Source: a virus
Length of the DNA stretch: 49,301 bases
UHGV virus genome: UHGV-0103780
Direction: 5' to 3' (one strand)
The translations under genes were made by a program, and so were the position numbers. Position 1 is the stretch's first letter, and the number at the start of each line of letters is the position of its first letter. Positions 1,576 to 33,105 of the stretch are shown piece after piece. The notes under the pieces are model-generated. The model did no database searches. It was not told where the DNA came from and worked only from the letters and a program-made list of their open reading frames with translations.

Positions 1576-2415
1576 TCACGCATCGCTATCCAACAGCAAA
1601 TCATCTGCGCGGGTGCGATCAAACGTAGGCGTTGCTTTCACAATAGTGCCGCCCGGCGTTGCAGTGATCGGGGCGTTAATCGACGTAACTTCAGTAAGCG
1701 AAGTTGTATCCGAAGTTTCAAACCAGCAGAATGCTTTTTCGGTATCAGAAATCTCATTCAAAGTGATCATGTCGGCCTGTTCATTTACAACAACCGACAA
1801 ATAGAGCGTAAGCCCATCAAACACTATATGCAGTGGCAGTAGAGGCTTTACGAACTGATTAAACTTTCTGAGAATTTCTTCTGTAATTGCGGACTGATCT
1901 ATCGTTCCAGTAATACCCATTGTCCGGGCCAAGTCGTTTATGGGAATACTGATCATTCCTCTGGAAGTCAGAAACATCTCGCCGAATGTGCCGCCGGTGG
2001 TTTCCAGTGTGCTTTCTGGAATCAGGACCGTGCCATAGGGATGACGTTCAAAGTCCACCGGAGCATATATGGGATCCCATAAAACCGATATACCGTTAAA
2101 TTCGCGATAAATTGTCTGGTTTATAGGGCGTTCAGTACCCTTAAAATGGATCTCATCAAACCGCTGTTGTAACAACATCGGAACGGAAGATGAATTCGAC
2201 GTTCTGATAGTAAAAAACTGGCCAAGTTCATTTGTCCTAGTCTCCAGATCCTCCTTGCTCATGGAGAAAATAGACTTCCGGTTGGTAATTCGCTCCAACC
2301 ATGGGTCAACAAAGGTGTCCATCATTGACTGAACCAAATCAGCCAATGATTTATAAAGTAATGACTTTTGCTTAGCTGATGTAAGCCGGTTATTAAACCA
2401 GGAACGCTGCATCAC
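1576..2415 (-). CDS. baseplate protein (Mu gp48 / P2 gpI-like position), 279 aa
   Basis: ATGA overlap with the upstream 477-aa gene (2412-2415); part of a W-J-I-like baseplate gene order. Confidence 0.6.
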   Translation of the reverse strand: MMQRSWFNNRLTSAKQKSLLYKSLADLVQSMMDTFVDPWLERITNRKSIFSMSKEDLETRTNELGQFFTIRTSNSSSVPMLLQQRFDEIHFKGTERPINQTIYREFNGISVLWDPIYAPVDFERHPYGTVLIPESTLETTGGTFGEMFLTSRGMISIPINDLARTMGITGTIDQSAITEEILRKFNQFVKPLLPLHIVFDGLTLYLSVVVNEQADMITLNEISDTEKAFCWFETSDTTSLTEVTSINAPITATPGGTIVKATPTFDRTRADDLLLDSDA

Positions 2416-3845
2416 TCCTCCTCATACGAAATATTAAAGGTGGAGTTTTCTGTATCCAGATAAACGAAATCGTAAAAGCCGTTGGACTCATTCCACTCGA
2501 CAAATTCCAGATAAAAGTCGCGGAAATAACCCAGCGTTTCGATAAATGCCCAAACGTCTTTTTTCTTGATTAGGATGTACTTGCCGACACGGTTCGGATC
2601 AAAGAAAGTTGAGTCACGCCCAAATTTTGTTTCCAGTGCCGACTTCAGCTCATCAGTCACGTTCTCAATGGTCAGGCTTGCCGATATCCGCCCAGTGATG
2701 GTGATCTTAAAGGGTAGTTTTCTGACCTCTTTATACGAGAATTTCTTGTTCAACTCATTCGGCACCTTCTTAAAGGCAGCCAGGATCATTTCTTCAAGCT
2801 CTGACTGGCTTTTGTTTGGATGCCATCCTGAAATAAATATCTTATTGATATTCCGAACATTATAAGCACCATCTAATTTCTCTTGCTGGCCTTCGCCCCA
2901 TGCCTTTACCCAGGACAGTCCCGGGATGTTACGCACCAGAAAATACGTATAGTCCCCGCCCCATACGACCTGATCATCATAGGCAAGGTAATATTGTGCA
3001 CGATTACGTGTGATCTCCGTTGTTTCGGCATCGGTACCTGCGGTTATGGGTGTCGTTGTCTTAACTGAAATCAAATTAGCTAAATTAGCCGCAGAATCGA
3101 CAGGAGTCAGGTTTTGGCCAGCAACCAGGGTTATATCTCCGTTGGTGCACCATACCTTAAGTGTAATGGTCGAGCCTTCTGGCGGTATTTGCCCAATTAG
3201 CCCATCACCGAATCGAACCCCCAACTGCTCGGATGGCTTATAAAACTCAACGTAGACCTGGCTTTTACTACCGGCTAACCGGAACATAGTGCTGGAAGAC
3301 CACTGCGTGGTCTTACCATCGGTCGTCACGAATACTTCCAGCTTATAGCAGACAGCAGTGAGAGCCTTTGATAACACGACTTCCAGAAATTCTTTGGCTG
3401 CCGTAACGGTATATGTCACCTCCTGGATTTCCAACTGTGCCACTTCTACCGTACCGGTGCCGTCAACCAACCTGCATACATCCATAGTCATGTAAGGGTA
3501 CTGGTCGTCAGATATTAAAGGCATGTTTTTGGGGATTACCGCTGGGGCATCTTCACTTGTGGCAGTGATCTCAATCATCCCCGATGACGGTGTTGGCTTG
3601 GTACCAACGTAACTATTCGTTTCTGCTGCTGCCAGGATAGAGGAACGCCGCGTCGCGGTCGATATAAAGCCTTCAGCCAGCGCCGCATCGGCATACTGAA
3701 AGCACCTGTAGACAATCTGGGTAATAAACAATGTCAGCATCGAGACAAATTGAGAGCCGACAAACTTCGACCAGAATGAATCTTTCTCGACAAGCTCTTC
3801 AAACTCTGCACGAATACTGTCTTTAGTCGGTGTTGTTTTACTCAT
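2412..3845 (-). CDS. baseplate J-like protein, 477 aa
   Basis: Size and position between a W-like and an I-like gene; translationally coupled at both ends (overlaps 3842-3845 and 2412-2415). Confidence 0.6.
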   Translation of the reverse strand: MSKTTPTKDSIRAEFEELVEKDSFWSKFVGSQFVSMLTLFITQIVYRCFQYADAALAEGFISTATRRSSILAAAETNSYVGTKPTPSSGMIEITATSEDAPAVIPKNMPLISDDQYPYMTMDVCRLVDGTGTVEVAQLEIQEVTYTVTAAKEFLEVVLSKALTAVCYKLEVFVTTDGKTTQWSSSTMFRLAGSKSQVYVEFYKPSEQLGVRFGDGLIGQIPPEGSTITLKVWCTNGDITLVAGQNLTPVDSAANLANLISVKTTTPITAGTDAETTEITRNRAQYYLAYDDQVVWGGDYTYFLVRNIPGLSWVKAWGEGQQEKLDGAYNVRNINKIFISGWHPNKSQSELEEMILAAFKKVPNELNKKFSYKEVRKLPFKITITGRISASLTIENVTDELKSALETKFGRDSTFFDPNRVGKYILIKKKDVWAFIETLGYFRDFYLEFVEWNESNGFYDFVYLDTENSTFNISYEEE

Positions 3846-12988: not shown

Positions 12989-13005
12989 TTTGCTCTAATA
13001 AATTT
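12989..13005 (+). promoter_or_regulatory. C1-repressor operator-like site (TTTGCTCTAATAAATTT)
   Basis: 16/17 to consensus; upstream of kilA-repL. Confidence 0.7.
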
Positions 13006-13074: not shown

Positions 13075-13875
13075 ATGCAACAAACATTCAATGCGGATAT
13101 GAATATATCAAACCTTCATCAAAATGTCGATCCTTCAACCACTCTGCCTGTTATTTGTGGTGTTGAAATTACGACCGACCGCGCTGGCCGTTACAACCTT
13201 AATGCTCTACACAGAGCGAGCGGACTCGGTGCCCATAAAGCGCCAGCTCAATGGCTAAGAACGCTGTCAGCCAAACAGCTCATCGAAGAGCTTGAAAAAG
13301 AAACTATGCAGAATTGCATAGTTTCGTTCGAAGGCCGTGGCGGCGGCACTTTTGCCCATGAATTGCTCGCTGTGGAGTACGCAGGCTGGATTTCTCCCGC
13401 GTTTCGGCTGAAGGTAAACCAGACATTTATCGACTATCGAGCCGGAAGATTACAACCTGCTATTCCGCAGAGTCTCCCTGAAGCTCTCCGTTTGGCTGCC
13501 GACCTGGCAGAGCAAAAGCAACGGCTGGAGCAAAAAATGCTTATGGATGCACCTAAAGTCGAATTCGCCGAACGCGTTGCTACCGCCAGCGGGGTTCTAA
13601 TCGGCAACTATGCCAAAGTGCTCGGTCTGGGCCAAAACTATCTCTTCACCTGGTTGCGTGATAACGGAATTCTGATCGCAACCGGTGAACGCAGGAACGT
13701 CCCCAAACAAGAATACATATCCCGTGGGTATTTCACCCTTAAAGAAACCGTGATCGATACAAGCAATGGAAGCAGGATTTCTTTCACGACTCGTATAACC
13801 GGCAAAGGTCAGCAGTGGCTGATGAAGCGATTGCTTGATGCTGGTGTGCTGGTACCTGTCGCGGCAACGCGCTAA
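13075..13875 (+). CDS. kilA: KilA-N domain protein, 266 aa
   Basis: N-terminal KilA-N-like domain plus the C-terminal domain shared with Ant; followed by repL as in P1. Confidence 0.7.
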   Translation: MQQTFNADMNISNLHQNVDPSTTLPVICGVEITTDRAGRYNLNALHRASGLGAHKAPAQWLRTLSAKQLIEELEKETMQNCIVSFEGRGGGTFAHELLAVEYAGWISPAFRLKVNQTFIDYRAGRLQPAIPQSLPEALRLAADLAEQKQRLEQKMLMDAPKVEFAERVATASGVLIGNYAKVLGLGQNYLFTWLRDNGILIATGERRNVPKQEYISRGYFTLKETVIDTSNGSRISFTTRITGKGQQWLMKRLLDAGVLVPVAATR

Positions 13876-13904: not shown

Positions 13905-14750
13905 ATGCTGGCTAAAGTCACTTTCCTGAGCTGTATAACGATGAGCGATTTTACTTTTTCTGGCTATGAATTGGCCTGCTTTGTAACACACTCCGGTCTA
14001 TCCCGTAGCGCCGGGCATATCCTGTCGCAATGTGCAAATCTAGCGGCAACAACCAGTGAATACTTCATTCACAAGCCTCACCGCCTGATCGCGGCAGAAA
14101 CTGGTTATAGCCAATCAACCGTCGTTCGTGCATTCCGTGAAGCTGTAAACAAAGGAATTCTGTCTGTAGAGATTGTTATCGGCGATCACCATGAACGTCG
14201 CGCTAACCTGTACCGGTTTACACCATCCTTTTTGGCCTTCGCACAACAAGCCAAAAATGCGCTGATTGAAAGCAAATTAAAGATCTCTTCAGCGGCAACC
14301 AAGGTTAAAGCTGTTCTCGCTAAGACATTGGCTTTATTTAATTTTTTATCCACACCCCCATGTCAAAATGATACCCCCTCCCCCTGTCAGGATGACGTGG
14401 CAATAAAGAATAAGAAGTCACAAGTTAAAAAAACAAAAAGATCAGTTTCCGGCGGTGCCGGAACGAGCAGACTCAAAAAATTGACTTCATGGATCGCTGA
14501 GGCAAAAGCAAAGGCTGACAATCTGCGGTTATCCAAAAAACGCGCTCAAAAACATGAGTTCAAGCAGAAAGTAGAGGCGGCAGCGCGGAAATATGCTTAC
14601 CTGAAGAACAAGCGTTCTCCTGATATTGGCGGGGTATCAAACTTCGATAATTTGCCGCATTGCATGACGGTAAACGAAGCTCTTAATGCGATTTTAGCCA
14701 AAAATAAAGATAACGAAAAATGGGGTATACCGGCAGGATTCAGGGGGTGA
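13905..14750 (+). CDS. repL: lytic replication protein RepL-like, 281 aa
   Basis: Immediately downstream of kilA under the same C1 operator; size as recalled for P1 RepL. Confidence 0.65.
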   Translation: MLAKVTFLSCITMSDFTFSGYELACFVTHSGLSRSAGHILSQCANLAATTSEYFIHKPHRLIAAETGYSQSTVVRAFREAVNKGILSVEIVIGDHHERRANLYRFTPSFLAFAQQAKNALIESKLKISSAATKVKAVLAKTLALFNFLSTPPCQNDTPSPCQDDVAIKNKKSQVKKTKRSVSGGAGTSRLKKLTSWIAEAKAKADNLRLSKKRAQKHEFKQKVEAAARKYAYLKNKRSPDIGGVSNFDNLPHCMTVNEALNAILAKNKDNEKWGIPAGFRG

Positions 14751-14800
14751 TAGATTGCTCTAATCTGGAGTCACCTGGCGTTTTCAGTTTGAGGTCGGAG

Positions 14801-15046
14801 ATGCAATCTGATTTTTTACAGTTAGCGATCGCTTTTGCAGGATATGTTTGTATTGGCTTCTGTGTATACATGATCAGCCGAAAAATGCTTGTCGATATCG
14901 ACCGCAAAGAACGAGCAGAGGAGATCTTAGTATGGATTTTCTTTGGCGCGGTCTGGCCATTAGGGATCATGTTTGCTGCAACATTTCTTCTGATGTGGAT
15001 ATTCACCCTTCCAGGTGATTTCTATAGAAAAAAAGCCAGACATTGA
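14801..15046 (+). CDS. small membrane protein (two predicted TM helices), about 81 aa
   Basis: ATG at 14801 preceded by GGAG; hydrophobic segments LAIAFAGYVCIGFCVYMI and ILVWIFFGAVWPLGIMFAATFLLMWIF. ORF track gives a longer 14720 start that overlaps repL. Confidence 0.4.
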   Translation: MQSDFLQLAIAFAGYVCIGFCVYMISRKMLVDIDRKERAEEILVWIFFGAVWPLGIMFAATFLLMWIFTLPGDFYRKKARH

Positions 15047-15227
15047 TACAATCGTTGCGGGTGCTTGAGGCTATCTGCTTCAGGCATTACCCGAAAAGCA
15101 GATAGAAGAAAGCCCCAGATAACATTACGCGTCCTGCAAGACGCTTAACATTAATCTGAGGCCATATCTATGCTTAGCATACGTAGATTAGCCTCTTACC
15201 GACCAAAAGGTCAAGGAGAAGCAGGCT

Positions 15228-15383
15228 ATGAAGCAGCAAAAAGCGATGTTAATCGCTCTGATCGTCATCTGTTTAACCGTCATTGTGACGGCACTGGTAA
15301 CGAGGAAAGACCTCTGCGAGGTACGAATCCGAACCGGCCAGACGGAGGTCACTGTCTTCACAGCCTACGAATCTGAAAGGTAA
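15228..15383 (+). CDS. hok: Hok/Gef-family type I toxin, 51 aa
   Basis: Manual read MKQQKAMLIALIVICLTVIVTALVTRKDLCEVRIRTGQTEVTVFTAYESER, a close match to recalled Hok/Gef sequences; overlapped by the mok-like frame 15170..15376 from the ORF track. Confidence 0.8.
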   Translation: MKQQKAMLIALIVICLTVIVTALVTRKDLCEVRIRTGQTEVTVFTAYESER

Positions 15384-15463
15384 GAGACCTGGCGGGGAGA
15401 GATCCTCGCCACTCTTCGTGTGTCAGGTATCCTCAATGCACCCTTTCCTCTCCAAATAAAAAA

Positions 15464-15479
15464 GCTCCCGAAGGAGCTT
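15464..15479. terminator. hairpin terminator between the convergent hok and tube-fold genes
   Basis: AGCTCC-cgaa-GGAGCT with an A-run upstream and T-run downstream. Confidence 0.6.
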
Positions 15480-15499
15480 TAAAATACAAGGGATGACTC

Positions 15500-32304: not shown

Positions 32305-33105
32305 CACAACAGGTAAGGGTATTTTGCGACGTCGGAGATCGCCGAGCTTGGCAGAGGGTTCGAATCCCTACGAAGTACCCTTACCGTTGTGATGAATGCG
32401 CAGGCTGATGCGCGAAAGACATTGCAGCTATTGCGGAAAAGAGCTGTTCGGCGGGGCAATTAAACGCCCGTGAGAGTCTGAAATAACCGCAAGCCGGAGA
32501 TCAGCACCGGTCATCACAACACAACAGGTAAGGGCATTCTCCCTTATGGGGCTTGGCTTAAATGCATCGAGTGCTCTTACCGTTGTGATGAAGTGCAGCT
32601 CTTTGAAGCAACCAGAAGATAAGCATCTGGCTTCACAACATAAACCGCAGGAACGACCAATAAACGGTAGTCCGTATGGAGAACACCCCGTTGAGGAAGA
32701 GGCCTGGCCGGAACCGTAACCGGCACTACAACGTTGAGAACACTGGCGTAACGGGGTCATATCCCAATCTACGAATAAATGTTGCGTTGCAGCGTGACAA
32801 CCAGTGTTCTCAACATTGTGGTGAATGCACAGGCTGATGTGCCGCAACTACAGTAGTGCGCGCTTTGCGGGGCTTGCTACAACCCTGTGTCGGAGTTCAG
32901 CACCGACCATCACAGTTTGATTCTCTGGCATGAGCATAACGCTGAAATAAGTCCAGTCTGGTGCGGCCCGATCACCCGCCGTTAGCTCCACGAAACGGAG
33001 CACGTAACAGGTAAGAGCATTCTCCTGTAACGGGTTCATATCCCAATCTACAGGTCCACCAGGAATGCTCTTTCCGTTGCGGTGAATGCGGCTAAGCGCA
33101 CGCGG
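32305..33105 (+). repeat. array of four related structured repeat units (long inverted arms around a tRNA T-arm-like hairpin)
   Basis: Copies at about 32305-32412, 32511-32600, 32733-32850, 33005-33105; examples CACAACAGGTAAGGGTA...GGGTTCGAATCCC...TACCCTTACCGTTGTG and a perfect 14-bp inverted repeat GTTGAGAACACTGG/CCAGTGTTCTCAAC. No convincing ORF. Confidence 0.6.

Follow-up and report, generated by a model that had tools for sequence, protein, structure and literature searches.

A hok/mok/sok type I toxin-antitoxin cassette in the repL–bplB slot of a P1-like phage-plasmid

The virus genome UHGV-0103780 (49,301 nucleotides (nt), analysed over its full length and called the window below) carries, directly 3' of repL, a locus that is almost certainly an intact hok/mok/sok type I toxin-antitoxin cassette, placed in a variable cargo slot between repL and bplB. 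Sequence comparison confirmed the backbone as that of a P1-like phage-plasmid (Punavirus). Post-segregational stabilisation of the plasmid prophage would be its most likely role. Taking identity and role jointly, we put the probability that this is a complete, apparently functional cassette acting in post-segregational killing at about 0.7. The likelihoods attached to this and to the other readings below were set separately; they overlap and need not sum to one. The mechanism described for plasmid R1 (PMC9841398) is the best supported, because all features that define hok/mok/sok at the level of sequence are present and intact.

The toxin gene is an open reading frame (ORF) of 51 amino acids (aa), which the first-pass annotation had called a Hok/Gef toxin. 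This assignment is borne out by Pfam HOK_GEF (PF01848), which is covered over its entire length (E = 2.4e-22; 78.7 bits, cut-off 22), and by PHROG 251, 'MokW-like host killing' (E = 4.9e-32). An NCBIfam Hok subfamily model reaches 49.5 bits, under its curated cut-off of 73, and the gene is named hokD by PGAP in identical plasmids. The protein is identical to HokW at 47 of 51 residues (92%) and to R1 Hok at 22 of 52. We conclude that the ORF is a Hok/Gef-type toxin, predicted to be an inner-membrane protein of ~50 aa. HokW itself is toxic in experiment and is neutralised by sokW transcribed from its own promoter (PMC8621323). The overlapping mok-like frame of the first-pass annotation is found at exactly the same position in the ORF list; it runs out of frame with hok, with an ATG-to-ATG offset of 58 nt.

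The codon for Tyr47 of hok sits within an invariant UACGAA motif (15366-15371). UACGAA is the tRNA-Arg2-like context of the reported A-to-I editing by TadA that recodes Tyr to Cys in hokB, and at the corresponding C-terminal site of hokC, hokD and hokE the same recoding has been reported. Were Tyr47 edited, the protein would gain another Cys, which might form a disulfide bond with Cys30.

The leader of the toxin mRNA is recognised by the Rfam family RF01794 ('sok'), which matches 15059-15233 on the plus strand with 114.9 bits (gathering score 59, E = 1.6e-25). Because the match is on the plus strand and the model spans the hok leader as far as the hok AUG, it proves the leader and not the antisense RNA. 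It covers the tac stem, ucb, the hairpin at the mok start and dcb, and the alignment to family members including fbi, tac and ucb, which had been suggested as a check, found these elements. The full-length mRNA has a minimum free energy (MFE) of -153.5 kcal/mol (z = -7.9), and across 62 distinct homologues 93.1% of the cells are paired, compared with 36-43% in slid-partner controls. In the full-length fold the mok Shine-Dalgarno (SD) is hidden by ucb, whose partner in the Rfam consensus is tac. The ends of the mRNA are joined by a 12-bp tac/fbi helix that is paired in 100% of the 62 homologues, tac itself being invariant. Substitutions in this helix among the 62 sequences are from G-C to G-U alone, with no compensatory double change, and the predicted helix is supported by conservation. 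A GC-rich hairpin in the 3' untranslated region (UTR) precedes a tail of ~30 nt bearing fbi; by analogy with R1, the processed and active mRNA is expected to end at this hairpin. The dcb element overlaps the promoter region of sok, which belongs to the other strand; the overlap is with the last part of the spacer, at a distance of 1 nt from the -10. The sok promoter mutation is located in dcb (PMC9841398).

The -10 of the hok promoter shares alignment columns with the R1 hok -10 TATGAT, which was validated by mutation (PMC9841398). Because homology with the prophage cassettes begins only at 15047, the -35 comes from the local context, namely the end of orf81, the small gene upstream of the cassette.

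The predicted antisense RNA was located on the minus strand. The first-pass annotation had expected a Sok-like RNA near 15150-15220 and proposed a search for its -10 and -35; the promoter and 5' end (15214 to 15178) fall inside that range, and the RNA runs on to ~15106. The minus-strand sequence CTCCTTGACC-ttttggtcggtaagaggc-TAATCT-acgtatG aligns with TTGCGC-17-TATCCT of R100/R1 and TTGCCT-17-TAACCT of 933W, which gives TTGACC-18-TAATCT as the sok promoter. It was placed through this alignment because a generic sigma-70 scan made no call. The Sok 5' end is put at G15178, which corresponds by homology to the 5' end that AF125520 annotates for the sokW RNA. The first 16 nt form a single-stranded 5' tail over the mok start codon; a long hairpin then spans 15162-15112 and UUUCUU closes the RNA, whose fold has -31.9 kcal/mol (z = -5.1). 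Within the HokW system, the sokW promoter was shown by mutation to be functional and antitoxin activity of sokW was demonstrated (PMC8621323). The locus thus encodes a candidate Sok RNA that has a promoter and a terminator to itself and is complementary to the initiation region of mok.

The Sok hairpin is nearly invariant in close relatives, and two divergent sequences misalign, so that it offers conservation only and no covariation. The target of the Sok tail (15163-15178) is the most variable segment of the cassette, with 17 alleles in the 62 sequences; its column entropy is 0.83, whereas the coding sequence has 0.06 and tac 0.00. Between the P1-type allele and the prophage alleles, 3-8 of the 16 positions differ. 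This variability would fit a private, allele-specific antidote in hosts that carry several cassettes, and it resembles a diversification of antidote specificity.

According to the R1 scheme, the mRNA is silent until it is trimmed at its 3' end, hok translation is coupled to that of mok, Sok blocks translation and leads to decay by RNase III, and killing follows once Sok is no longer replenished (PMC9841398). From the R1 and HokW paradigms we infer a corresponding series of steps for the window. A constitutive promoter (-10 at 15047-15052) would produce an mRNA of ~385 nt that is stable and silent, with tac and fbi paired and the mok ribosome-binding site masked by ucb. Slow 3' trimming as far as the GC hairpin (15390-15411) would take fbi away and expose the mok site, and translation of mok would then drive translation of the overlapping hok. 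Short-lived Sok, made from its own promoter, would cover the mok start with its variable 16-nt tail, block translation and pass the duplex to RNase III. Were the plasmid prophage lost, Sok would decay first and the stored mRNA would yield the 51-aa inner-membrane Hok. The cassette would in this way stabilise a plasmid prophage of low copy number, together with phd/doc in those elements that have it.

In favour of post-segregational killing, all regulatory elements in the window are intact, the coding sequence is conserved, and the arrangement persists at 98-100% identity in 206 plasmids and 187 E. coli genomes. Several points weigh on the other side. The -35 of the hok promoter is non-ancestral sequence inside the 3' end of orf81, and the generic sigma-70 scan (at least 4/6 matches per hexamer) misses the sok promoter, whose -10 has only 3/6. 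In the MFE structure of the trimmed mRNA (15059-15413) ucb and the SD stay paired, and a forced open form is 16 kcal/mol worse; folding thus does not return the open tac/ucb form, although the R1 control fails likewise. The mRNA structure is chiefly evidence of conservation, because the window sequence itself served to derive it and its few double changes recur across related rows. Compensatory changes are mostly common to ten P1-type rows and amount to few independent events, so structural support would be mostly conservation and not independent covariation. Both expression of the window copy and killing by it are predictions from sequence. Chromosomal hok loci that look intact gave no post-segregational killing, as cited in a Hok survey preprint, and the closest tested relative, hokW-sokW, has been assigned to phage release and not to maintenance.

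The last point leads to a different role, that of an induction-coupled lysis helper like hokW-sokW of prophage Sp5. Derepression of C1 would let transcription from the kilA-repL promoter (operator 12989-13005) read through orf81 into the cassette, in the sense direction, and interfere with the convergent sok promoter. As Sok fell, Hok would be made and, by damaging the membrane, would give more or faster release of P1-like progeny. In Sp5 treated with mitomycin C, sokW RNA vanishes and HokW, which is 92% identical to the window toxin, appears in a RecA-dependent manner, and phage yield is halved without the hokW-sokW locus. The window cassette is co-oriented with the C1-controlled kilA-repL operon and immediately 3' of it, a weak terminator-like hairpin (15003-15018) being the sole one between. 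However, the C1 operator search returned no operator or induction-responsive element inside the cassette, and read-through from kilA-repL is supposition. P1 also owns a holin, an antiholin and a lysozyme, and canonical P1 manages without hok; the location is explained as well by insertion into a generally variable slot that takes unrelated cargo. We regard this role as the main rival reading, though an unlikely one. A related proposal is that position wires the cassette to the lysis-lysogeny switch in addition to any post-segregational killing. Read-through from the C1-repressed kilA-repL-orf81 unit would run into the convergent sok promoter, remove Sok and time Hok to the lytic cycle, where Hok may accelerate lysis or provide a fail-safe should induction abort. 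This we consider rather improbable; if it held, the common lineage that bears hok would be physiologically unlike laboratory P1.

An anti-phage role, by abortive infection or exclusion, is very unlikely. It would have the transcription shut-off imposed by a lytic phage deplete Sok and free Hok, so protecting lysogens. The effect known from R1 is modest and comes from measurements at high copy number, PADLOC has no model matching Hok or orf81, and the Hok survey preprint reports no enrichment of hok beside defence systems.

Table 1 Features of the cassette, its slot and the surrounding window
Feature	Position	Strand	Basis or remark
hok toxin gene, 51 aa	15228-15383	+	Pfam HOK_GEF match, HokW identity
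hok SD, GGAG	15215-15218	+	
mok reading frame, 68 codons, ATG at 15170	15170-15376	+	ORF list
mok SD, GAGG, 8 nt 5' of mok ATG	15158-15161	+	read from sequence
hok promoter: -35 TAGAAA (15025-15030), 16-nt spacer, extended -10 TGaTACAAT (hexamer 15047-15052)	15025-15052	+	promoter scan
Full-length hok (mok-hok) mRNA, ~385 nt, +1 at ~G15059	15059-~15443	+	Rfam start, fold
tac, 5' GGGUGCUUGAGG	15059-15070	+	pairs with 15431-15443 in MFE structure
ucb (anti-SD), AAGCCCCAGAUAA	15110-15122	+	pairs with mok SD region 15151-15162 in full-length fold
dcb, GCCUC	15191-15195	+	pairs with GAGGC 15158-15162 in Rfam consensus alignment
GC-rich 3' UTR hairpin	15390-15411	+	fold; helix 16 92% paired, one compensatory pair
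fbi, CCUCAAUGCACCC	15431-15443	+	pairs with tac, 6+6 bp, one-base bulge
Candidate Sok antisense RNA, ~73 nt	~15178 to ~15106	-	transferred from annotated sokW of 933W
sok promoter: -35 TTGACC (15214-15209), 18-nt spacer, -10 TAATCT (15190-15185), +1 G (15178)	15185-15214	-	
C1 operator Op55 (Orlf) remnant, left breakpoint	14754-14770	+	window ATTGCTCTAATctggag, P1 ATTGCTCTAATTATAAC
Hairpin terminator of bplB, P1 backbone, right breakpoint	15458-15480 (hairpin 15461-15480)	-	AAAAAAGCTCCCGAAGGAGCTTT, identical in P1
orf81, small hydrophobic 81-aa protein	14801-15046	+	PHROG 3772 (function unknown)
KilA, ANT and KilA-N domains	13075-13875		
RepL	13905-14750		
T5orf172-domain protein	23428-24237	-	
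Rep_3-type initiator	24530-25450	-	
336-aa ORF with PGA_cap (capsule synthesis / metallophosphatase-like) domain	47486-48496	+	

The alignment with P1 (NC_005856) places the locus, as the first-pass annotation had it, in the slot after repL of a P1-like backbone, and likewise agrees that reference P1 has no hok there, its genes at this point being rlfA, rlfB and pmgF. Homology with P1 ends at window position 14764 (P1 51585) and resumes at 15458 (P1 53412). Because it is interrupted there, the 693 bp between (14765-15457) are taken to replace ~1.83 kb of P1, rlfA-rlfB-pmgF; the substituted block consists of orf81 and the hok cassette of ~400 bp (15047-15443). At the left breakpoint only the first 11 bp of Op55 (ATTGCTCTAAT) survive, upstream of orf81, and the remnant is absent among the nine C1-operator matches found in the window with up to 3 mismatches allowed. 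At the right breakpoint P1 homology restarts at 15458 and covers the whole hairpin at 15461-15480, which is therefore P1 backbone. A hairpin terminator after the toxin ORF had been reported from the sequence; the hairpin is present, but it is oriented for bplB. As a terminator for hok it was ruled out, since it has a terminator score on the minus strand only, with no more than three T after the stem on the plus strand. The extent first given to the locus, 15120-15485, contains a real locus with a left bound that is too narrow: the promoter starts at 15025 and the mRNA spans ~15059-~15443, so that 60 nt at the start of the hok mRNA, with tac and ucb, and the 3' end of Sok were left outside.

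The match of orf81 to PHROG 3772 (E = 1.7e-53) extends over residues 28-108 of a 108-aa ORF. With tblastn, orf81 finds Punavirus records only, among them a 44% identical homologue in SJ46. Within P1-like loci the hok cassette always has orf81 beside it, and orf81 also occurs without hok in 673R5 and SJ46. The minus-strand neighbours of the slot are bplB, pmgG, gp21 and the sheath gene.

Over window positions 363-42997 the identity to P1 37153-79999 is 97-99%, except for three substitutions. The C4 RNA and its targets and three tRNAs are present in the window, and the nine C1-operator matches compare with 0.18 expected by chance. Positions 1-362 (tail-fibre end) and 32404-32569 (beside the tRNA genes) have no megablast match to P1. 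The replication region (23359-25619) does not match P1 61313-62814 (incA, repA). Because its Rep_3-type initiator differs and there is no match to P1 incA/repA, the plasmid replicon of the element is non-P1.

To follow the arrangement through sequence collections we used a junction query of 1201 bp that spans both breakpoints and includes the cassette, counting hits at a coverage of at least 80%. By this measure the junction is present in 206 PLSDB plasmids, in many of them at 99-100% identity; among 5426 complete E. coli genomes, 187 have it. The P1-type arrangement with rlfA-rlfB-pmgF (coverage of at least 80%) was found in 98 plasmids, so that of the two arrangements counted the hok form is about twice as common. 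The segment repL-orf81-hok-bplB is 99-100% identical in the P1-like elements p12579_1 (NC_017653), MH422554, phi456 and vB_EcoM-Ro157c2YLVW; in the GenBank record MH422554 the gene is called MokW. The replacement of rlfA-rlfB-pmgF in P1-like plasmids had already been described by Venturini et al. 2019 (PMC6906374), with two ORFs 'including antibacterial toxin' in the slot of pSvP1 and three ORFs between repL and bplB in pTZ20_1P. Our literature search found no paper dissecting the hok cassette in P1-like elements. A hok cassette in the repL–bplB slot is already known, as a known family in a known variable slot with hundreds of annotated records.

Matches to the junction query are present in 4748 of the 5426 complete E. 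coli genomes, at a median of two places each. Most of these matches are chromosomal, with identities of 80-95%, as in the prophage copies. Such abundance is what a selfish or inert passenger would show, that is, a unit of ~400 bp that spreads by recombination and persists, with no benefit, since it is hard to lose or silent. A unit with the boundaries 15047-15443 recurs in many lambdoid prophages at 81-91% identity, chromosomal hok loci lack killing activity, and in some P1-like copies an IS4-family insertion removes fbi, as is reported for inactivated chromosomal hok loci. The window copy, however, has its regulatory elements intact and its coding sequence conserved, a cassette that kills on loss effectively stabilises its carrier, and the hok form of the slot outnumbers the P1 form (206 vs 98). 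We therefore hold the passenger reading to be distinctly doubtful, and post-segregational killing remains our preferred account.

Variants of the slot were seen among the P1-like loci. Three of them (L011, L014, L020) break in the 3' hairpin at ~1378 (window 15396-15405), with an IS4-family transposase gene next; this IS4-family insertion cuts off fbi. It recalls the insertion sequence (IS) insertions beside chromosomal hok loci. The segment GGAGAGATCC (15396-15405) matches, as its reverse complement, the IS186B direct repeat of pSvP1 (PMC6906374), which identifies the 3' GC hairpin, by its sequence, as an IS186 target. Other cargo occupies the same slot in 673R5, SJ46 and L007. Both L007 and L008 carry an extra 270-aa gene of unknown function (1711-2523, minus strand) between the hok cassette and the backbone, and their bplB segment is not at the position seen in the window, the slot having gained further cargo.

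The first-pass annotation had also proposed an extra or replacement addiction module relative to phd/doc of P1. An extra module it is: p12579_1, in which the slot is 100% identical, also carries phd/doc, ~39 kb from the slot. Because this element has both, the hok cassette is an addition that does not displace phd/doc, and what it replaces is rlfA-rlfB-pmgF. The phd/doc module is a type II, protein-protein system with the same presumed purpose, stabilisation of the plasmid prophage. The window ends ~6 kb short of the phd/doc position of p12579_1. The end of the window (47521-49301) diverges from p12579_1.

Although no new mechanism or family is present at the hok locus, the result has value for annotation. 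Existing records label the toxin gene only (as hokD, MokW or "antibacterial toxin"), whereas mok, the Sok RNA, the promoters and tac, ucb, dcb and fbi can now be given exact base positions. At the repL–bplB slot laboratory P1 is atypical. Many P1-like elements carry resistance genes, and type I and type II addiction modules together may hinder their curing.

The closest known systems are hokW/mokW/sokW of the Stx2 phages 933W and Sp5, whose cassette DNA is 86.5-91% identical to that of the window with the same boundaries; cassettes bounded in this way (15047-15443) occur in the lambdoid prophages 933W, Sp5 and Rac at 81-91% identity. The 933W-type and window cassettes have tac, ucb, the Sok hairpin, dcb and fbi in common, and the 933W record annotates a Sok RNA. 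They differ in their carrier, a plasmid prophage for the window and an integrated lambdoid prophage for 933W and Sp5, and in the hok promoter, whose -35 is supplied by orf81 in the window. The Sok 5' tail of the window differs from the 933W-type allele at 6 of 16 positions. In 933W (L002, 1616-1828) the mok ATG lies 57 nt before hok and in frame, and 'MokW' is an N-terminally extended Hok. In the window an extra T at 15211 gives sok its -35 TTGACC and its 18-nt spacer and shifts mok out of frame with hok (offset 58); in both P1-type and L029-type alleles this T restores the R1-like, 58-nt out-of-frame arrangement.

The hok/mok/sok (parB) system of R1 was compared through its copy in R100. The hok -10, the sok -35 and -10, and the starts and SDs of mok and hok fall in the same alignment columns as in the window, and the mok-hok offset is 58 nt in both. 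Mok ends in ...HSLRI in the window and in ...HGLRIR in R1. Both systems pair the 5' and 3' ends of an mRNA of ~390 nt (385 nt in the window, 398 nt in R1), and in both Sok consists of a 5' tail, a hairpin and GGGGCU(A/U)UCUU. The sequences themselves have diverged, in tac/fbi (GGGUGCUUGAGG/CCUCAAUGCACCC in the window, GGCGCUU/AAGCGCC in R1), in the Sok hairpin and in Hok, where identity is only 22/52. With reference P1 and P7 the window shares the flanks of the slot at 97-98% identity, from repL to the first 11 bp of Op55 and from the bplB terminator hairpin onward. Compared with the same slot in sequenced P1-like plasmids there is no substantive difference, although some of these add an IS186-type insertion or an extra gene.

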